Of a stretch of 64,000 bases of DNA, positions 50,952 through 60,400 are shown piece by piece. The notes under the pieces are model-generated. The model did not search any database, was not told the DNA's origin, and saw only the letters and a program-made list of their open reading frames with translations. Both the position numbers and the translations under genes were made by a program. This DNA is from Candidatus Bathyarchaeota archaeon. Its GTDB lineage: Archaea; Thermoproteota; Bathyarchaeia; Bathyarchaeales; Bathycorpusculaceae. Numbering within the stretch: the first letter of the stretch is position 1; every line of letters begins with the position of its first letter. The DNA lies in contig OY970280.1 of NCBI GenBank assembly GCA_963715865.1, forward strand, positions 2,208,001 to 2,272,000, written 5' to 3'.

Positions 50952-53120
50952 ATGAAGAGACCAGTAAGATTAGGGAAGGCTAAACTACTTGTATCGAAGA
51001 TTCCGAAGAAAGCCTTTCTTGTCTCAGTTTTAATCGCTATAATTCTTGCTTTGTCAGTTGCCAGTGCAGTCCACGCCATTGGATTAATTGGCTCAATAAC
51101 GTCGGTTGGCTCTCCTTCGAGCATAGCTTATGATTCTGGTAGAAGCGAACTTTTTGTTGTTGATAGCAACAGTCATAACACAATCGACGTCATATCAGAT
51201 AGCAGCAACAGTTTAGTTGCCAGTATCCCTGTGGACGGGCCAACGGCTATAGCTTACGATTCTGGTAAAGGCGAAGTCTTCGTGGTTAACGCGTCCTTCG
51301 GAAGTTCTGCCACTGTTTCAGTCATATCAGACAGCAGCAATACAGTAGTCGCCACTATTCCTATTGGAGGCAACCCTGGCGGCCTCATTCACGGAATGAT
51401 TTATGATGCTGGCAAAGGCGAAATTTTCCTCCTCAACAACGGAGTCCAGGTAATATCCGACGAAACCAACACCATCATAGCGACCATACCCTCTTCAGCC
51501 AACTTCGAACCCTCTTGTCTTGCTTACGATTCTGGGAAGGGCGAGATTTTCGCGGTAAACAGCGGCAGTTCTGGCATGATCTCAATTATTTCAGATGCCA
51601 GCAACTCGGTAGTTAAGACTTTTTCGGTAGGGGGCTTTCCAAGCGATTTAGTCTATGACTCAGGCAAAGGAGAAATCTTTGTCCTAAACGAAGATGTAAT
51701 TCAAGTAGTATCGGACAAAAATAACGCTGTAATCGCAACCTTGAATCTTAGTAGCCAAGGATTAGTTTATGACTCTGGCAGAGGCGAAATCTTTACCATG
51801 GGCGCACACAACGGAATACTCTACGCCATATCCGACATCAACAATAATGTGGTTGAGTCCTTGACTGTGGGGGCCTACCTTCCCTTTGGCTTAACTTATG
51901 ATTCTGGTAAAGGTGAAATTTTGCTGGTTGGCTTCGGCACCATAACCGTCATATCTGATGCGCCCAGCTCCAATACCGCTTCTGTTCCAACCTCTGCTCT
52001 GCCCACAAGCACGACTCCGTCTGCCTCTCCAATCCCAACAACAACCGTTAAGGTAACCGCAACTATACCTGTTGGAACCAATCCTGAAGGGGTAGCTTAT
52101 GATTCAGGCAAGGGTGAAATGTTCATAGCCAACTATGGCTCCAACACAGTCTCTGTTATATCGGACCACAGCAACACCGTTGTGGCAACTGTGCCAGTGG
52201 GAGTCCAACCTGCAGGAGTTGCCTATGATTCCGGTAAGAGTGAAGTTTTTGTAACCAACGATGGCTCGGGCACTGTATCTGTCATATCGGACCAGACAAA
52301 CGCCGTTGTCGCGACCGTAACGGTGGGAACCAATCCTAACGGCATTGCTTACGACTCCGCCAAAAGCGAAATGTTTGTGGCAAATTGGGGATCCAACACT
52401 GTTTCGGTCATATCAGATGACAGTAATACCGTAGTGGCAACTGTACCCATGGGAACCAATGTCATGAGCGCAGCCCATCCCATAGGCGTAACGTATGATT
52501 CCGCTAAAGGCGAAATCTATGTAGTAAATTCCTACCCAAATACTAGCGGCTATGGCACGGTCTCTGTCATATCCGACAGCAACAACACCGTCCTTGAAAG
52601 CATAACCGTAGGAGGCTACCCCATCTACGCGGCTTATGATTCTGCAAAAGGCGAAATATTCGTAACTAACAGCCAGGACAATTTTATCTCGGTAATCTCA
52701 GACAGCACCCACGCCGTTGTTGCCAGCGTGACTTTTCCTTTTAACGAAGCCTACGCCTCTTGGGGCATAGCATATGATTCTGCCGATGGTCAGATATTTG
52801 TAGCTAATCAGCGAGGAACAGTCTACGTCTTATCAGACAGCTCAAACGCTTTAGTTGAGACTGCACCGTTGGGAAGCAATTTTAATTCCCACTGCATAGC
52901 CTATGATGTTGCCAAAAAAGAAATGTTTGTAACCAATAATGGTAACGGCGCGGTCTCAGTCCTATCTGTGTCCCCGATCACATCCCATCCAACCGCGCTG
53001 GGGCTCAGCAGTTTAGGTCTCATTTTAGTGGTGGTGGCAGTGGTGGCTGTAATCTTGTGTGCGGCTGCATTAGCAATAAGAAAATCAACCCGATCTCGCT
53101 CCGCTTCCAAGCAAATATAG
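50952..53120 (+). CDS. Double YncE/YVTN beta-propeller surface protein (2 x 7 blades) with anchor (ORF opens at 50916)
   Basis: Fourteen YD..K.E-type repeats in two blocks separated by a S/T/P linker; C-terminal TM and basic tail. Confidence 0.88.
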   Translation: MKRPVRLGKAKLLVSKIPKKAFLVSVLIAIILALSVASAVHAIGLIGSITSVGSPSSIAYDSGRSELFVVDSNSHNTIDVISDSSNSLVASIPVDGPTAIAYDSGKGEVFVVNASFGSSATVSVISDSSNTVVATIPIGGNPGGLIHGMIYDAGKGEIFLLNNGVQVISDETNTIIATIPSSANFEPSCLAYDSGKGEIFAVNSGSSGMISIISDASNSVVKTFSVGGFPSDLVYDSGKGEIFVLNEDVIQVVSDKNNAVIATLNLSSQGLVYDSGRGEIFTMGAHNGILYAISDINNNVVESLTVGAYLPFGLTYDSGKGEILLVGFGTITVISDAPSSNTASVPTSALPTSTTPSASPIPTTTVKVTATIPVGTNPEGVAYDSGKGEMFIANYGSNTVSVISDHSNTVVATVPVGVQPAGVAYDSGKSEVFVTNDGSGTVSVISDQTNAVVATVTVGTNPNGIAYDSAKSEMFVANWGSNTVSVISDDSNTVVATVPMGTNVMSAAHPIGVTYDSAKGEIYVVNSYPNTSGYGTVSVISDSNNTVLESITVGGYPIYAAYDSAKGEIFVTNSQDNFISVISDSTHAVVASVTFPFNEAYASWGIAYDSADGQIFVANQRGTVYVLSDSSNALVETAPLGSNFNSHCIAYDVAKKEMFVTNNGNGAVSVLSVSPITSHPTALGLSSLGLILVVVAVVAVILCAAALAIRKSTRSRSASKQI

Positions 53121-53153
53121 AGCTTTGGCTTGAAGCATAATTGCGATGGATGA

Positions 53154-54113
53154 TTATTTTCTTTTTCCAAGCCTATCGAGCAGTGCGCTTGTCATTATGG
53201 GCATGATTACGGTGGCGTCGCCTTCTATCATGATGCGTTTGGCTTTTTCGTTGATTTTTCCCCAGGAAACGGCTTCTCGGGGTCTTGCGCCGCTGAGGCT
53301 TCCGTCCCACTCATCTGCGGTGCTTATGTAAACCACGTAATCTAAGCCATCCTTGAACTGATTCCACCAGATGGTGTGGTGTTTTGAGATTCCTCCGCCA
53401 ACAATTAAGGCGCCGCTTTTCTTAGCGTCAAAAATGATATTGTTAAGTTCGCCTGAGTCTTTAAGCAAGTTAAGCTTGAAATCATGGTCCTGACTGAAGA
53501 ACCATGTTTGATATCCTACTGCGCCATCGGTTATGCCTGGCACAAAGACTGGAATGTTGTTTTTGGCTGCCCAATAAAGAATTGAGCTGTCATTACAGCA
53601 GCGTAAGCCGATTTCGCGGACTAATTCGCTGGCTGAAACCTCACGTTTGCCTTCTTTGTATAAATCCTGTAGCAATGCTTGAATTTTCTGCTCTATAATT
53701 ATGCCATAACTGTCATTGGGGACAAGCACGTTTCCCAAACGGTTTACGCCTTCCTGATGGAGTTTAGAATCGTTCATTATGAAGCTGCCACGATAGTAGT
53801 CTCTCCAACAGCGTGCCATGTCATGGTCAAGTGTCCCGCAAGTGGTGATGACGACATCAACGAGTTTGCGTTTCACAAGCTCCCTCATCACGCCGCGTGT
53901 GCCTGTAGCGACGAGGTTGCCTGTAAAAGAGAGAAACTTTACGCAGCCTTTTGTGTTAATCATGCTTTCAAGGATGTTTACGCCTGTGGCAAGTTTGCCA
54001 GCGGTAAAACCCCAAGCTTTCTCCATCTGGTTAACAAGTTCATTTACGCTCATTTTATCATTGAATTCGTAGTCTTTGACTGCTTCTTTCAAGGACTTTC
54101 CCTTCCGTTTCAA
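53154..54113 (-). CDS. dys: Deoxyhypusine synthase (canonical archaeal type)
   Basis: SFTGNL, TTCGTLDHD, RLGNV, GGGISKHH, DGSLSGARPREAVSWGK. Confidence 0.93.
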   Translation of the reverse strand: MKRKGKSLKEAVKDYEFNDKMSVNELVNQMEKAWGFTAGKLATGVNILESMINTKGCVKFLSFTGNLVATGTRGVMRELVKRKLVDVVITTCGTLDHDMARCWRDYYRGSFIMNDSKLHQEGVNRLGNVLVPNDSYGIIIEQKIQALLQDLYKEGKREVSASELVREIGLRCCNDSSILYWAAKNNIPVFVPGITDGAVGYQTWFFSQDHDFKLNLLKDSGELNNIIFDAKKSGALIVGGGISKHHTIWWNQFKDGLDYVVYISTADEWDGSLSGARPREAVSWGKINEKAKRIMIEGDATVIMPIMTSALLDRLGKRK

Positions 54114-54198
54114 TATTCCAACAACCTAAGCGAAATAAATATGTTCGTCTCCTACCGTAGCAGTCGAAAGATTTTTCCTAAACAAACTCTAAGGTATA

Positions 54199-54699
54199 GT
54201 GAAGTTGACCGCGGTGGAAAGAAAGAAAACTTCTATAATTCGTCGGGCAAACGCTCACGACATCGGAGTTATCTCTGAAATTGAAAAGAAATGCTTCCCA
54301 GGATTAACTGCTTATTCTAAGCGACAGCTGGCATATTTAATCCTGAAAGCTAACAGTACAGTTCTTGTCGAAACTGAAAACTGCATATTACGAGGGTTCA
54401 TAATCGTAACCTACCGTAAGGGAAGTCGAATCGGCAGCATCGAAACGTTCGATGTCGACCCACGTTTTCGAAACCTAAGTGTGGGCATCAGCCTTCTGGC
54501 AGCAGCAGAAGAGGACATGAAGCAGCGGGGGATGAAATTCGCGCAACTCGAAGTTTCTGAAAGAAATGAACCTGCAATCAACCTCTATCAAAAAGCAGGT
54601 TACACAATCAAGCAGAGACTTGTAGGCTTTTACCGATTTGAACACAACGGAACACGCGATGCCATCCGCATGGTCAAACCTCTCTTTAAGGCTCCGTAG
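54199..54699 (+). CDS. GNAT (RimI-like) N-acetyltransferase
   Basis: FDVDPRFRNLSVG..LEVSERNEPAINLYQKAGY. Confidence 0.88.
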   Translation: MKLTAVERKKTSIIRRANAHDIGVISEIEKKCFPGLTAYSKRQLAYLILKANSTVLVETENCILRGFIIVTYRKGSRIGSIETFDVDPRFRNLSVGISLLAAAEEDMKQRGMKFAQLEVSERNEPAINLYQKAGYTIKQRLVGFYRFEHNGTRDAIRMVKPLFKAP

Positions 54700-56125
54700 T
54701 TGGAACCCAAACGTCGTTATACAATTTTGTAAAGCCGTTCGTATATTCTGTTATTATCTTAAGCAGAGGAGCACGATAACGCTTTGGCACCAACTGCATG
54801 TCACCCGTGCTTTTGTGAAGATGAATAGTTTCAACATGAGCATGTTCTGTTCCCTTTATTGAAGAGTCATATTTGTTGGCGAGAAAAGCGGCGTGCTCCC
54901 GTTCATCTTCATCCAGTCTGAGACCCCCCTTGGCTAGTCGAGCAGGAAATGCGGCGATTTCCTTTTTGCCATAGCCCATAATGGCGGGATTAACGTTGTT
55001 GGCGCGAAGGAACAACTGAATTCCGAGACACTTGCTGCAGTCGCCGCACGGCACCATGTCTCTGCCTTGGAAGTGGCAACTGTGGCAGGAGCGTTGAAAC
55101 TTAGCAAGTTCTGGATATCGTCGGGTTAATATCCTCTCCACAATGAGTCCTGACACTGGTCTAACGGCACTCCATTGGCGCATTCCAGGCATCCTCTTTT
55201 CGTACCATTTCTCCATTCTTAAGTCAAAGTCTTGCGTCTGGTCGTAGACGCCATAATAATGCTTTATTCCTTTGTAGAACGGAGAAATGCGGGGGTCGTC
55301 AAATTCGCTTCCGATTAATAAGTTGCCGATTTTTTGGGAAAAGAATATCGGTAGTAAATAGAAAACGTAGACTGGGAATATGCATAGCCTTATTGGGTAA
55401 GTGTCTGACCATACTTGCCTGTGATCAGGCCTAATGATTCTCATATGATCCAGCATGAAAGTGTAAAACCTGTCCACATTAATCCAAACTCTCCCCGTAT
55501 TGGGCTCGCTGGTTACGTGGTGACGGTAAGCTGGAAGTGCGGTTCGCCAGTGTCCACCGCTCTCGTTGACATACAAGGGATAAACCTTTGCCCCAACCTC
55601 CTTCAACATGGCATAAGTCAAAAGGCTCTCTTTTCCACCACTTGAAAGTACACCACACGAGTTTTCATCAAGTCCAGAGCAAAGCTGGGAATCTTCTACG
55701 ACAGAGGCAGGGACTAAGCTTGCTATTGGCTTAGCGTTCGCTTCAGTTGCGTCTTCATCTGATAATCTAAATTCAGGTAAAACATAGGGGTTTTTTCTAC
55801 GTATCAACTTGTTGATGAAAATGTCTCTGCTGAAAATATCCAAAAAATCCTTCAGCAGCGAAAAATCAGATTCGCTTATTGAATAGTTGAGTTTGATTTC
55901 CTTGGTGAAGAGGCCGTAGTTAAGAATAGGCATAGCTGACGCCAGCCTCAAAAAAGCCAAGTGCTCTGCTGATAGAGATTTCTCGTATTTGGAGAGAAGA
56001 ACGAAGCTGTGCCGTTCTCCATCAATACTCTCACACGTTATGCGTGTTCTTACAGTTTTTTCCTTAATTTCTGGGTCGTAGATTTCGATAGAATTGAAAC
56101 ACTGAATATTCGTTACATTAACCAT
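54686..56125 (-). CDS. Uncharacterised HUP/PP-loop ATP pyrophosphatase with C-terminal Cys cluster (MurL/QueC-like)
   Basis: SSGGKES PP-loop-like motif, IGSEF, SCHSCH and PCGDCSKC. Confidence 0.7.
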   Translation of the reverse strand: MVNVTNIQCFNSIEIYDPEIKEKTVRTRITCESIDGERHSFVLLSKYEKSLSAEHLAFLRLASAMPILNYGLFTKEIKLNYSISESDFSLLKDFLDIFSRDIFINKLIRRKNPYVLPEFRLSDEDATEANAKPIASLVPASVVEDSQLCSGLDENSCGVLSSGGKESLLTYAMLKEVGAKVYPLYVNESGGHWRTALPAYRHHVTSEPNTGRVWINVDRFYTFMLDHMRIIRPDHRQVWSDTYPIRLCIFPVYVFYLLPIFFSQKIGNLLIGSEFDDPRISPFYKGIKHYYGVYDQTQDFDLRMEKWYEKRMPGMRQWSAVRPVSGLIVERILTRRYPELAKFQRSCHSCHFQGRDMVPCGDCSKCLGIQLFLRANNVNPAIMGYGKKEIAAFPARLAKGGLRLDEDEREHAAFLANKYDSSIKGTEHAHVETIHLHKSTGDMQLVPKRYRAPLLKIITEYTNGFTKLYNDVWVPTTEP

Positions 56126-57167
56126 CCCTAAGTTTCTCGATGGCGTCAGCTATCTGTGTAACGCCGTCAATGACGGGATCTTCTACAGGCACCTTGAATC
56201 TTTTATGCAGCTTAGATTTGGCTTTTACAGCATCCTCGTTCGATAGGTGCTCATGATTGATGCTTATTCCGATGAGGGGACGTTGTGAAAGGAGCTTGGC
56301 TATCTTAACAACGCGGAGAGGATCAGGCATAGGGTAGCCGGGGAATCCATCAAGATATGGACGGCCAGGGGCATCTTGCAATGTGAAGCCGTGAACTTGT
56401 CCTGCAGCCAATATCTCAAATCCGCCTGGGAAAAATGGGTGCACCAAACTTCCTTGTCCTTCGATTATGATGAATTCGGGTTTTTCATCTCTCCAAGAGT
56501 CAAGTATTGCTCCTTCAATTCCACCTGAAACAAAGTCGTTTATCAATGCGTCAATGACTGCTCCATGTGGCCAACCTTGCATCCATCCAGTTTGTCCAGT
56601 GTAAATCATGTCAGCTTTGCGTTTGCGTTTCCTCAGTTCGTTGACTATCATGACTGCCGTGGTTCTCTTGCCAATAGCTGAATCTGTGCCTAAGGTGGCA
56701 ATTCTGGTTGAGCCTACTTTGCCAATTTCACCTGTGTAAAACCGTTTGTGGTCTCTGAACATCTTGCGGACGTCTGTGATTTTGCAACCGTTTTTGTTAG
56801 CTATTGAAGTAAACCGCTCCTCGTCTGAGATGAATTGATGAAGCCCTGAAACAACATTTAGGCCTTGCTGCAAAGCATAAATGACCGCTTTGTCGTAACC
56901 TTGCGGCAAAATGCCTCCTTCGGAAACTGCTCCGATTATAAATGTGTCTGGTTTAGTTTTTTCGCGGGCTTCTTCTAAGTCGTGGAATAGTGGGATTCCT
57001 CTTTTTTTTCCGTCTAATATTTCCCCTGCGTCCCCCAGAGGAGCAGTTGAATCTACGACACCCACAATTTTGTATCTGGTTGTGTAACGTACAAGTCCGT
57101 GAGCTGTTTTGCCGTTTGCATTCAGGTATTCTCTTTCGCAGTAGACTAATGCTTTTTCTTCTGACAT
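56118..57167 (-). CDS. DUF1611 family protein (DgcN-like)
   Basis: GKTAHGLVRY, VVSGLHQF, GTDSAIGKRTT, TGQTG, IEGQGSLVHP. Confidence 0.9.
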   Translation of the reverse strand: MSEEKALVYCEREYLNANGKTAHGLVRYTTRYKIVGVVDSTAPLGDAGEILDGKKRGIPLFHDLEEAREKTKPDTFIIGAVSEGGILPQGYDKAVIYALQQGLNVVSGLHQFISDEERFTSIANKNGCKITDVRKMFRDHKRFYTGEIGKVGSTRIATLGTDSAIGKRTTAVMIVNELRKRKRKADMIYTGQTGWMQGWPHGAVIDALINDFVSGGIEGAILDSWRDEKPEFIIIEGQGSLVHPFFPGGFEILAAGQVHGFTLQDAPGRPYLDGFPGYPMPDPLRVVKIAKLLSQRPLIGISINHEHLSNEDAVKAKSKLHKRFKVPVEDPVIDGVTQIADAIEKLRDG

Positions 57168-57174
57168 ATGTTGC

Positions 57175-58311
57175 TCACGCTTTGCGCCCAGTAAGAATTA
57201 CCACATATCGGTCGCCAGGGTAAGGTTCCTTTTTATGCCTGTCCAGAAGCGCTATTAGCCCGGCTGTGGACGCTGGAAGGACACTTAAACCTTCCTTTTC
57301 TCTTATTAAGCGCGCGTAATCCATCATGCTCTTGTCCGTTGCGTATGCAGCCCATCCATGGGTTTGTCTGATGGCGGATAGTGCGTAGTCGCCGTCGATT
57401 GAACGCCAGTTGATTAAAGGCTCGTTGATCGTGGTGTTTCTGATTTTTTCTGGTTTTAAGTCGCAACAGTGGGGCATGTTTTTGATGAATGCGTTTATTA
57501 TGGGATTCATGCCGTAGGATGAGCCTGCGATGAAGCGGGGTATGCGGGATGTTTTTCCTCGGTTGTATAGACTTAGGAAGCCTCTGTATATTCCTGCTAT
57601 TGTGGAGCCATTTGAGGCTGGTACGGCCACGGCGGCAGGTGCGTCTCTGAGTTCGTCGTAGATTTCGTAGGCTATTTCGCCGTATGCTTTGAATTGGAGG
57701 TTGGTGTTGCTTCCGCCTGGATTTGCATCGTAGTATCCGTTTTCTTCAGCTTGTTCTCGGGAAATTGTCACTGACTCTTCATAATCTCCGGGAGTTTTGA
57801 TTATTTCCGCGCCCCATTGTTTGATTTCTTTGATTCTGTTAGCGTGGTACTCTTCAGGGATGTAGATTAGGCAACGTAATCCAGCTAGGGATGCGGCTAG
57901 CGCGATTGCTGCGCCGTAGTTGCCGCATGAGGCGACTGTTATCTCGTTGTATCCTCTGCGGAGTGCGTCGAGGGCTTGTGCGAAGGCGATGCGGTCTTTT
58001 TGTGTTCCGGTTGGGTTTCCGCCTTCGAATTTTAAGTATATTTGTCGGAGTCCCACTTCTCTTTCGATGTTTCTTGCGCGGGTTAGGTTTGTGTCGCCCA
58101 CTTCTGAGTCAAGTATTATTTCGAAGCATTCGAGCCGTTCTTCTAGCGATTTGCTTCGATCTCGGGCTGTTTTGCTTTCAAAATACAGTTCGGGTGTTAT
58201 TGACGGAACTTGGGCGGTTGCGCCGTCCAAAAGTGAGAAGGGGCTGCGACTTTTTAGATCCTCGTCGTTTTCATGGTTATGTTGAGGAGGTTCTTCTTTG
58301 GTCTCTTCCAT
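57175..58311 (-). CDS. Fold-type II PLP enzyme, threonine-synthase-like
   Basis: LKFEGGNPTGTQKDR PLP lysine, ASCGNYG, PASNGST, PASTAG, ILTG. Confidence 0.88.
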   Translation of the reverse strand: MEETKEEPPQHNHENDEDLKSRSPFSLLDGATAQVPSITPELYFESKTARDRSKSLEERLECFEIILDSEVGDTNLTRARNIEREVGLRQIYLKFEGGNPTGTQKDRIAFAQALDALRRGYNEITVASCGNYGAAIALAASLAGLRCLIYIPEEYHANRIKEIKQWGAEIIKTPGDYEESVTISREQAEENGYYDANPGGSNTNLQFKAYGEIAYEIYDELRDAPAAVAVPASNGSTIAGIYRGFLSLYNRGKTSRIPRFIAGSSYGMNPIINAFIKNMPHCCDLKPEKIRNTTINEPLINWRSIDGDYALSAIRQTHGWAAYATDKSMMDYARLIREKEGLSVLPASTAGLIALLDRHKKEPYPGDRYVVILTGRKA

Positions 58312-58803
58312 AATTATTTCTCTTCCATGATTATTCCTTGTTTAGGATTGCTTTGTGTTTTGAGATAGTACTTATTTCTAACTATACAATTCTTGGATAA
58401 CGCCAAGTGAAGCTTCGATTCGATTGATGAATCTAGAAACGTTGAAGGCTTTAACAGATACGAATCAGTTGCTAGGTCGATGTTTGAGACGACCAACACT
58501 CATTAGACACCAGTAATTAAAAGGCGATATTAGTGCAGTTATATTTAAAATTAACTATAATTAATTCGTTGATTATGTCCACATCCAAAATTAACGCTAA
58601 ATAAAAAGAAGCATAATCACCTTTACAATTTGAAGAGACAAAGACAATGCAAAACGCCGTCTCAACGCTAAACCAAATCGTAAAGGAAACATGGTGGCCT
58701 GCTTCTTGGAACAGGAAATGCGTCCTCTTCTGGCACAGACATTCAAAATTGGCGAGGACGACTTGCCTTTAGAAGTTGTTCGAAAGCTTGGCTTAAAATA
58801 ATC

Positions 58804-59154
58804 TTATAGAAAGCCTGCGTCCTTTAATTTTAACGCCAAGCTAAGGTTGCCTTTGAAATGGATTTTTCCTGTGAAAAAAGCTTTCTCAGTGCTTAACTTT
58901 CCGTTTACTATGTTCATAAAATCGCTTACAGCGATCTTCAGTGTCAATGCTGGTGATGGCTGGGTTCCCTTTGTTACCTGCAATTTTTGATCTTTTATAA
59001 TGACCACCCAGTCACCTCCGTCTGAACCGGTTAAGTTTAATTGAGCTATAACGTCAATGCCTGCCGCTTTATCAGGTTTGAATCTGGCGGGTAACGCTTT
59101 TTCGAAAAACTCGTTTGGCGTTTTAGCTTCCATCATTTTCAACTCATAGTTTCC
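58804..59154 (-). CDS. SCP2 sterol/lipid-binding domain protein
   Basis: FKPDKAAG..QLNLTG..W..G.L..AF.TGK..KGNL.LALKL; start codon uncertain. Confidence 0.85.
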   Translation of the reverse strand, partial: GNYELKMMEAKTPNEFFEKALPARFKPDKAAGIDVIAQLNLTGSDGGDWVVIIKDQKLQVTKGTQPSPALTLKIAVSDFMNIVNGKLSTEKAFFTGKIHFKGNLSLALKLKDAGFL

Positions 59155-59196
59155 TCCTATTGTACACAATTAGGTTATTGAACTTTATTGAATGGT

Positions 59197-59955
59197 TTAT
59201 CTGAAAAGGTCTTTTTCTTTTGGTCTAGTGAGTTCTGTTGCTGAGGCATTTTCGGCAGTTTGGTAATTGTACCCTCGGATGATAGCGGCTGGTATTCCCT
59301 CATTCGCTTGACCAATGACAAGTTCCGCTGCCGAAGATAATTCGTCCGCGATGGCGGTTTGTTTTATTCTCAGAACATATCCGAATAGGTCTTTTTCGCC
59401 TCGTCTGTCTCTTATAGGCTTGATTCCTGCTACGCCTACTGCAACGTTTATTTCGCCCATGCGGAAGGGTCTTCCATGCGTGTCAGAAACGATTACTGCA
59501 ACGTTAGCCCCTGTTAACCGTTTTATTTCTTGCCTTATGTTTTGTGCAGAAGCATTAGGGTTTTTTGGCAGTGGCACAACATTTCTGTCGCCTGAAACGT
59601 TGGATCGGTCTACTCCAGCGTTGGCACAAATCACGCCACTCTTGGTTTCTGTAATGATGCTGTTTTGACCAATTCGAATAATGTCTTTGGTTTCTTGAAG
59701 AATAACTTCAACCATAGCAGGGTCTTTGTTTGTTTTTTGCGCTATTTCCTTTGCCCTTTTCGAAGGCGGTACTTCGTCAAGGTTAATGACGTTTCCTTCA
59801 GCTTTCGAAACAGCAACATGCGTAACCACAATGACGTCTTTTTCTTGGATTGGTGTGTTCTGTTTTTTTGTCGCTTCAACGATAAGCTGACCCAAGTTGT
59901 CTCCTTTCTTTATTAACGGTAAATTTTCAACAGCGATTACTTGAACAGTGTTCAC
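59197..59955 (-). CDS. cofE: Coenzyme F420-0:L-glutamate ligase
   Basis: VSKAEG, ANAGVDRSN, VSDTHGRPFRMG, ADEL..AA.LVIGQ..EGIP. Confidence 0.95.
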   Translation of the reverse strand: MNTVQVIAVENLPLIKKGDNLGQLIVEATKKQNTPIQEKDVIVVTHVAVSKAEGNVINLDEVPPSKRAKEIAQKTNKDPAMVEVILQETKDIIRIGQNSIITETKSGVICANAGVDRSNVSGDRNVVPLPKNPNASAQNIRQEIKRLTGANVAVIVSDTHGRPFRMGEINVAVGVAGIKPIRDRRGEKDLFGYVLRIKQTAIADELSSAAELVIGQANEGIPAAIIRGYNYQTAENASATELTRPKEKDLFR

Positions 59956-60100
59956 ACAACATACCTCTACTGAATCATTAATTGCTAATTATTCAATAGA
60001 AACTTAAGGTTATCTCGATAAGAAAATTGAAAAAAAGTTGATTCGAAACCTGGAATAAGGGGGCAGATAAAGTGTCTCTTTTTTTGCGAGGCAAACTTGA

Positions 60101-60400
60101 CTCGCTGAGCTTAAGCAAGGTGGCAGGCAAATAATCGGCGCTATCAGGGTGATCGCTGAACCTGATGGAAAAAGTAGCGGGTTCGCTGTCTTGGTTGCCG
60201 ATCAATGGCAACTTAAAGGTCTTGGATTAATGCTAATGGATTACATAATAGCGGTTGCAAGAAACATGAGACTGGAGAGAATCTTTGCTACTGTTCTTCC
60301 AGATAACATTAAAATGATAAGGTTATGCGAGAAAAAGGGATTTAAGATAGAAACGTTGGATGAAGAGACTGTTAAAGCGTCTCTAGTCCTATCCTATTAG
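60101..60400 (+). pseudogene. Truncated GNAT domain resembling the C-terminus of acyl-CoA ligase/GNAT fusion proteins
   Basis: IGAIRVIAEPDGKSSGFAVLVADQWQLKGLG..VLPDNIKM..GF, preceded by an in-frame TGA with no convincing start; N-terminal half missing. Confidence 0.6.

Follow-up and report, generated by a model that had tools for sequence, protein, structure and literature searches.

Three described systems stand closest to the genes considered here. MurL is an ATP- and Mg-dependent, AMP-producing enzyme which acts on the C-terminal glutamate of an N-acyl peptide, converts it from L to D in one direction only and has the ligase MurD2 as its partner (PMC5808125, PMC8788868). QueC (7-cyano-7-deazaguanine synthase, PF06508) is characterized by an SGGxDS PP-loop and a C-x8-CxxCxxC zinc motif (PMC13329287). 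In the DgcN-DgcA pathway, an N-acetyltransferase of the DUF1611 family is combined with an enolase-superfamily N-acetyl-D-glutamate racemase (as cited in PMC10845958). The window analysed here, a stretch of 64,000 nucleotides from contig OY970280.1 of a Candidatus Bathyarchaeota archaeon, carries at 54199-58311 a cassette of four genes that recalls each of these systems: it encodes a pyridoxal phosphate (PLP) enzyme, a DUF1611 protein, a 479-residue protein of the MurL superfamily and a GNAT acetyltransferase. The model we propose, tentatively and with slightly less than even confidence, is built by analogy with these systems: the cassette would tailor an amino acid or a very short peptide by acylation or ligation and by adenylation of a carboxylate with epimerization.

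The genome (G000) is a single contig of 2.35 Mb from Bathyarchaeia, 97.9% complete, and the scan of the window for open reading frames (ORFs) gives four ORFs in the interval, every one stop-free in translation. On the minus strand, the gene of the PLP enzyme (57175-58311, 378 residues, fold-type II, PRK06381 subfamily) is followed by that of the DUF1611 protein (56118-57167, 349 residues, DUF1611_N and DUF1611_C) and by that of the MurL-superfamily, or MurL-like, protein (54686-56125, 479 residues), on which the GNAT gene (54199-54699, 166 residues) converges from the plus strand. The TGA stop of the PLP gene is separated by 7 nt (GCAACAT) from the ATG of the DUF1611 gene; the ATG of the 479-residue gene lies within the final DUF1611 codons, in an overlap of 8 nt (ATGGTTAA), and its TAA (54686-54688) falls inside the 3' end of the GNAT gene, whose own TAG stands at 54697-54699, giving a convergent overlap of 14 nt. 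These junction sequences confirm the three coupled genes and the convergent GNAT reported in the first-pass annotation of this DNA, with the gap and overlaps it gave, and its domain labels agree with the Pfam matches (PALP, E 7e-60; DUF1611_N, E 2e-23; DUF1611_C, E 3e-54; Acetyltransf_1 for the GNAT, E 3e-13). The GNAT start codon is uncertain (GTG 54199, TTG 54205 or GTG 54214), because the homologues align from residues 2-14 only.

The four genes are one laterally mobile, self-contained unit. All twelve Bathyarchaeia loci that span the whole block keep the order PLP, DUF1611, MurL-like and convergent GNAT, with 55-96% identity in the 479-residue protein, and this arrangement is far beyond chance. 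The three co-oriented genes, taken on the first pass as an operon, do stay together in all complete Bathyarchaeia loci and in relatives at 32-37% identity, bacterial contigs included. Strong orthologues occur in 4 of 151 sampled Bathyarchaeia genomes; within the genus, one of the five other sampled genomes has them, and the MurL-like gene is found in 3 of the 41 genomes of the family. The cassette occupies two different genomic positions, and at half of the loci that carry it the flanks are unrelated. Its place in the window is between SCP2 and deoxyhypusine synthase (DHS); CofE, SCP2 and DHS directly adjoin one another in two genomes of the same genus for which no cassette was found, and in a third, G038, the complete cassette lies on another contig and the SCP2-DHS gap holds about 3.5 kb of other genes (L063 1195-4692, G038:C29). 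Insertions may recur at this site between SCP2 and DHS. We considered whether CofE, SCP2 and DHS are functionally tied to the cassette and rejected the idea, since these flanks are missing at half of the loci and are contiguous in the same-genus genomes that gave no cassette; the neighbours CofE, FrhB and CODH are accordingly placed outside the system.

As judged from its predicted fold and from profile comparisons, the 479-residue protein belongs to the MurL superfamily as a divergent member, has a core of the QueC type and is not a MurL equivalog. No Pfam or NCBIfam model matched it at default thresholds, a search at E values up to 10 gave a marginal match to DUF6395 across the cysteine motif (E 0.037), and the comparison with PDB chain sequences returned chance matches to designed proteins only; the suspicion that it might be a known tRNA or cofactor enzyme is thereby set aside. 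Its homologues number 1,244 among 90%-identity clusters, and clustering at 50% identity gives 252 groups; they are found in archaea and bacteria, the named ones are all called 'hypothetical', and the majority come from Bathyarchaeota. The AlphaFold (AF2) model generated from 34 diverse homologues (pLDDT 95, pTM 0.93) places a QueC-type PP-loop core (about 153-380) between an N-terminal alpha/beta domain (residues 1-150) and a helical C-terminal domain. Among solved structures, the core is closest to Cap9 (Z 13.3) and QueC (Z 12.8), with QatC as the best Foldseek match, and the remaining PP-loop enzymes score at most about Z 9 against the model (NcsA 9.2, TtuA 9.1, YcfA 8.7, LarE 8.1). The PP-loop is S161-GGKES and the cysteine site C347-x12-C360-x2-C363-x2-C366, in which C347, C360 and C363 are invariant and C366 is kept in at least 90% of the aligned sequences; the motifs named beforehand, S161-GGKES, C347-HSC350 and C360-GDC363-SKC366, are all present.

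The link with MurL rests on an NCBIfam hidden Markov model, on predicted structures of the Atlas and on a bridging family, A2, which is the alignment of the weaker matches from the exhaustive search with the 479-residue protein. The shape search of the Atlas leads to four clusters with TM 0.73-0.74 over 405-414 of the 479 residues; all members of these clusters carry MurL_N and MurL_epimerase_C (PF26298, PF26299), and in some of them MurL is fused to a Mur ligase. In the language-model feature search of the same resource, the nearest named cluster is again MurL (score 0.96). The A2 members match the MurL model NF041275 at E 1e-4 to 6e-12, and the alignment of the 479-residue family with A2 by hhalign covers columns 40-467 with a probability of 100% (E 3.7e-40). 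Within the 479-residue family alignment itself, 16 of the 34 members match NF041275 (best E 1.8e-6), and no other family recurs. It is because of the whole-length fold match, the A2 profile match and the recurrent NF041275 matches that we place the protein in the MurL superfamily, and the 'MurL/QueC-like' guess of the first-pass annotation is upheld by both kinds of comparison.

The possibility that the 479-residue protein is the lost QueC of the genome was also entertained. Neither PTPS/QueD nor a canonical QueC was matched in this 97.9% complete genome; the candidate was rejected, QueD being not found either and the architecture being of the MurL type and not of the QueC type. As a separate observation, the genome encodes an archaeosine-type TGT (544-residue ORF) and a second TGT-like gene despite having no QueC or QueD match, and salvage or unrecognized enzymes are candidate routes for its supply of preQ0.

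The PLP enzyme is predicted from its sequence to be threonine-synthase-like without being ThrC. It passes the cut-off of NF004996 (PRK06381) with 437 bits against 266 and stays below that of the thrC model TIGR00260, with about 99 bits against 167, and two loci elsewhere in the genome exceed the thrC cut-off (372 and 197 bits); the worry that it could be the only true threonine synthase of the genome is thus removed. In a comparison with four solved threonine synthases and with the ThrC of the genome itself, the PLP lysine, K105, is kept within NPTGTQKDR, and the ThrC motifs NPTGSFKDRG, STGNT, NPxRxEGQK and GNAGN have become NPTGTQKDRI, SCGNY, ANPGGSN and SNGST. The loops replaced are those which in ThrC bind the carboxylate and the phosphate of the substrate. 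The altered signature motifs are common to the PLP genes that adjoin both MurL-like subfamilies; the PRK06381 genes adjoin a MurL-like gene in every case examined, and no member above the cut-off occurs in 14 control genomes. We found no experimental basis for the name 'threonine synthase' given to NF004996. A side observation concerns the second thrC-like gene (L019, G000:C1:1642155-1643111, 462-residue ORF, the 197-bit match), in which NPTNSYRDR aligns to NPTGSFKDR; the arginine at the position of the PLP lysine could reflect a misalignment or a non-catalytic paralogue.

The DUF1611 protein possesses both PF07755 and PF17396, with Pfam scores of 184 and 83 bits, and obtains 176.6 bits on the DgcN model NF041892 against a cut-off of 480, so that it is not a DgcN equivalog. 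Its model (pLDDT 90) superposes on 2obn (Z 37.3), 2g0t (Z 34.1) and DgcN 7xrj (Z 30). Beyond the DUF1611 structures, the P-loop domain of the model is nearest to SIMIBI MinD/ParA-type ATPases and to enzymes that form C-N bonds, such as dethiobiotin synthetase (Z about 14), and its N-terminal domain is similar to Rossmann domains that bind NAD(P). GTDSAxGKRTT, a deviant Walker A motif, shows no variation in the DUF1611 alignment. Protein P0142, in which DUF1611 is fused to a MurL-like enzyme, parallels the Mur ligase::MurL fusions of the Atlas, and the association of the DUF1611 and 479-residue families, this gene fusion included, shows them to be inseparable. The predicted complex of the two proteins, with alignments as input, scored 0.00, which speaks neither for nor against binding. 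The earlier statement that the DgcA-type racemase is absent holds for the window, the genome having one weak MR_MLE_C match (36 bits, in a 427-residue ORF); the bacterial relatives of the operon carry such a gene.

The GNAT is a cassette-specific paralogue that travels with the other three genes. Its close orthologues (54-57% identity) adjoin the 479-residue gene and are confined to genomes carrying that gene (3 of 41 in the family); in the remaining matching genomes of the family, GNATs of 26-40% identity only are found, and the window genome also has a 35% paralogue elsewhere. On the RimI model TIGR01575, it scores 52.7 bits, below the cut-off of 86.4. Apart from the cassette, an 83-residue ORF of the window (60149-60400, plus strand) matches the C-terminal half of the GNAT domain Acetyltransf_1 only (E 2e-8) and is possibly a gene remnant.

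The more distant relatives retain the nucleus of the cassette and vary its accessories. At 35% identity, one relative shows the order PLP, DUF1611, an inserted PAS gene, MurL-like, a small SpoIIAA-like gene and a convergent GNAT, the last being 33% identical to the GNAT of the window (E 3e-24). Relatives at 32-37% identity, at least one of them on a bacterial contig with dnaA, combine PLP, DUF1611 and MurL-like genes with an enolase-superfamily MR_MLE gene, and the MR_MLE genes that were scored are nearest to L-Ala-D/L-Glu epimerase and DgcA. Some relatives have a creatininase-family domain, fused to the MurL-like protein or encoded alongside it, whose closest family is the peptidase MftE, with a score of 165 bits where the cut-off is 172, and in another the MurL-like protein is fused to a methyltransferase and followed by an N-formylglutamate-amidohydrolase (FGase)-family gene.

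A sister module is formed around the A2-type MurL-like genes; 16 of 27 sampled genomes of another Bathyarchaeia family have such genes, frequently two of them. In four of the six A2 loci that were fetched (L057 5193-9173, L058 4186-8216, L059 4726-8151 and L060 4954-8416), the MurL-like gene adjoins a PRK06381 PLP enzyme 43-45% identical to that of the window, one of which scored 391 bits on NF004996, and is followed by a D-Ala-D-Ala-ligase-like (Ddl-like) ATP-grasp enzyme, with a C-terminal GNAT in two of them (L057 and L058). The bacterial A2 members have the same type of ligase, followed by a KamA-family radical SAM aminomutase: on the bacterial metagenome contig L049 (3951-7398), the A2 MurL-like gene is translationally coupled to those of a Ddl-like ligase and of a KamA-family (lysine-2,3-aminomutase-like) enzyme, which suggests a beta-amino-acid dipeptide as the product in this lineage. 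From the sister module it follows that the pair formed by the PLP and MurL-like enzymes is the deepest link of the system, that DUF1611 occupies the slot of an amide-forming ligase and that the GNAT function recurs.

In the pathway that we propose for the cassette, the PLP enzyme would supply a non-standard amino acid by beta- or gamma-replacement or by elimination, or would consume the end product. The DUF1611 protein would place an acyl or aminoacyl group on the amine of this amino acid, a role given to it because its relative DgcN acylates and because ligases (MurD2, the Ddl-like ATP-grasp enzyme) adjoin or are fused to MurL-type enzymes. The MurL-like enzyme would then adenylate the C-terminal carboxylate with ATP, with release of AMP and PPi, and convert the alpha-carbon from L to D in one direction, and the GNAT would cap a free amine. 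Such a route would end in a small N-acylated molecule with a D-amino acid, which might serve as compatible solute, signal or antimetabolite. In the mechanism proposed for MurL, the adenylation of the carboxylate of an N-acyl amino acid renders the alpha-proton labile, possibly through an oxazolone (PMC8788868). This chemistry would explain why MurL-type enzymes accompany makers of N-acyl bonds, namely MurD2, the Ddl-like ligase and, here, DUF1611 and the GNAT; the MR_MLE, creatininase and FGase-family accessory enzymes of the bacterial versions would also fit a scheme in which the substrate is acylated, epimerized and deacylated. A broader claim, possible in our view though on the doubtful side, is that PRK06381, DUF1611 and the MurL-like family constitute a previously undescribed archaeal and bacterial pathway, in which a non-proteinogenic amino acid would be made, acylated or ligated, and fixed in the D form at the expense of ATP, with a new class of N-acyl D-amino-acid metabolites as the result. 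The system is built from known kinds of enzyme, and no description of such an operon or pathway was found in the searchable literature on DUF1611, DgcN, MurL homologues and QueC-like proteins.

Several points weigh against this model. The 479-residue protein itself fails the equivalog test of NF041275, with 11.2 bits (E 0.091) against a cut-off of 700, and the mechanism of MurL is still open (PMC8788868). The second, enolase-type epimerase of the bacterial versions seems redundant if the MurL-like enzyme epimerizes, the Bathyarchaeia cassette has no amidohydrolase, and the sole studied DUF1611 member uses acetyl-CoA, which leaves the separate role of the GNAT unexplained. The role of the PLP enzyme is pure inference. 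Finally, the nearest solved folds, QueC, Cap9 and QatC, form amides or nitriles rather than epimerize, and amidation or ligation is therefore a live alternative. The MurL-like enzyme would in that case pass the adenylated carboxylate to ammonia or to an amine, and the product would be the amide of an N-acetylated amino acid or dipeptide, for instance an osmolyte similar to N-acetylglutaminylglutamine amide (NAGGN). These folds are the top matches among solved structures, and the PP-loop and the four-cysteine site are both retained, the latter in a variant form of the QueC zinc motif. The NAGGN pair consists of Ngg, in which a GNAT is joined to an ATP-grasp enzyme, and of AsnO, a PP-loop amidotransferase, and it is mirrored by the ATP-grasp::GNAT fusion and the PP-loop enzyme of the sister module. 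The GNAT of the window also matches the Ngg model TIGR03103, but weakly (E 5e-5, 22 bits against a cut-off of 569) and over the generic GNAT core only. Since, in addition, the whole-length fold with both extra domains is of the MurL and not of the QueC type, and no glutamine amidotransferase domain or gene occurs in any cassette examined, we regard this second explanation as somewhat unlikely, if still deserving of attention. The cassette could also serve catabolism or salvage, an environmental D-amino acid such as D-glutamate from cell-wall debris being converted to the L form by acylation, ATP-driven epimerization and a deacylation performed elsewhere, before its breakdown by the PLP enzyme. 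Such an optional nutrient trait would suit the patchy, cassette-like distribution and the origin of the genomes from peat and sediment, and the bacterial relatives carry a DgcA- or dipeptide-epimerase-like gene together with the creatininase or N-formylglutamate-amidohydrolase families; DUF1611 is, moreover, related to DgcN, whose pathway with DgcA handles D-glutamate (as cited in PMC10845958). It is unlikely, however, since MurL works from L to D only (PMC5808125), since the sister modules place in the position of DUF1611 a dipeptide ligase, which builds and does not degrade, and since the conserved genes of the Bathyarchaeia cassette include neither a transporter nor a deacylase.

Two further explanations emerge from the structural comparisons of the 479-residue protein. 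The insertion of sulfur would combine PP-loop adenylation, an Fe-S or persulfide site made of the three to four conserved cysteines and a PLP enzyme of the cysteine-synthase fold that gives or removes sulfur, following the logic of thioguanine synthesis by YcfA/YcfC and of LarE, TtuA and NcsA. In YcfA/YcfC, a PLP enzyme is paired with a PP-loop enzyme, as in the cassette, and NcsA, TtuA, YcfA and LarE are indeed among the structural matches. These matches are weaker than those to QueC and Cap9 and restricted to the shared Rossmann core, the spacing of the cysteines is that of the QueC/QatC zinc pattern and not of the three-cysteine Fe-S pattern, and no gene for a sulfur carrier or a cysteine desulfurase is present in any cassette examined, which makes this function very improbable. 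Less credible still is a role in anti-phage defence along the lines of QatABCD or type IV CBASS, in which the attachment of a nucleobase to a protein would be the task of the QueC-like protein. That QatC and Cap9 are the top structural neighbours and that the cassette is patchy and mobile would agree with it; none of the four proteins matches a PADLOC model, the partners QatA, QatB, QatD, CD-NTase and the TGT-like Cap10 are absent, the neighbouring genes are metabolic or housekeeping and the conserved partners are metabolic enzymes. Furthermore, 7-carboxy-7-deazaguanine lacks an evident source in the genome, where no QueD and no canonical QueC were matched, and we consider a defence function extremely improbable.

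Upstream of the PLP gene, the region 58312-58560 (minus strand) contains a TATA-like box, TTTAAATA, at about 58543-58550, followed by a conserved leader of about 45 nt, TGGTGTCNNATGRGTGYTGGTYGTYTCAA, which begins at 58512, about 200 nt upstream of the gene. The leader is kept in the window and in L001, L002, L004, L009, L011 and L017, which are the loci where the cassette stands beside SCP2; the loci in which it stands elsewhere have no such leader and share instead another element, AAAATTAATAATCC, located some 50 nt upstream of the ATG. The leader overlaps a 61-residue ORF (58314-58499), its consensus folding gives a weak hairpin with no compensatory changes, and an Rfam search of 53000-60000 returned no match. 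As regards RNA, no listed dataset covers the entire operon, and one peat metatranscriptome run is listed for a single-gene query; it yields one contig of 256 nt at 55361-55616, with 3 differences and a depth of 2.1, for which DNA carry-over is possible. This contig is too little for any statement on transcription or co-transcription of the cassette.

To our knowledge, MurL is the sole studied member of the superfamily of ATP-dependent one-way peptide epimerases. Our observations draw attention to a large unannotated branch of this superfamily, distributed in archaea and bacteria and associated with a PLP enzyme dedicated to it and with an N-acylating partner that can be either DUF1611 or a Ddl-like ligase. 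Knowledge of the product would extend the functions assigned to DUF1611 past that of DgcN, would put right the name 'threonine synthase' that a whole NCBIfam family received automatically, would offer a second biochemical handle on MurL-type chemistry and might reveal a new archaeal D-amino-acid metabolite. Could the cassette be an archaeal, ATP-driven route to D-amino acids, independent of racemase and of murein? The mobility of the cassette makes its intact 4.1-kb unit a realistic object for heterologous expression.

How, then, does the locus compare with the described systems? With MurL, the 479-residue protein shares the three-domain fold throughout, a remote sequence homology, the neighbourhood of or fusion with a maker of N-acyl bonds and, by analogy, the expected chemistry, which would be an ATP-dependent adenylation of a C-terminal carboxylate. 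It differs by a score far under the MurL cut-off and by its partners, which are DUF1611, an obligatory ThrC-like PLP enzyme and the GNAT; no Mur ligase is present in any locus, DUF1611 being found at that position, and the Pfam MurL models are uncommon in the Atlas clusters of the 479-residue protein itself. Archaea have no murein, and UDP-MurNAc-peptide therefore cannot be the substrate of the enzyme in its archaeal host. With QueC and Cap9, the likeness lies in the core (about 153-380), which superposes, in the SGGxxS form of the PP-loop and in a four-cysteine motif with a CxxCxxC end. The PP-loop is nevertheless SGGKES and not SGGxDS, the first spacing of the cysteines is C-x12 and not C-x8, the N- and C-terminal domains are additional, the context of queD and queE is absent and que genes occur in no cassette examined; the QueC model PF06508 gives no match for the protein at E values up to 10, and the genome-wide search with PF06508 also misses the gene. 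With the DgcN-DgcA pathway, the cassette has in common the DgcN fold of its DUF1611 protein, the DgcA-like gene of its bacterial versions and the logic of acylation followed by inversion, but the window has no DgcA-type gene, and the ATP-dependent enzyme of the MurL-like family and the PLP enzyme, both present in the cassette, are foreign to the Dgc pathway. The sister module, finally, employs the same PLP subfamily, a homologous MurL-like protein of 24-29% identity and the GNAT function, and differs by the D-Ala-D-Ala-ligase-like enzyme that takes the place of DUF1611.

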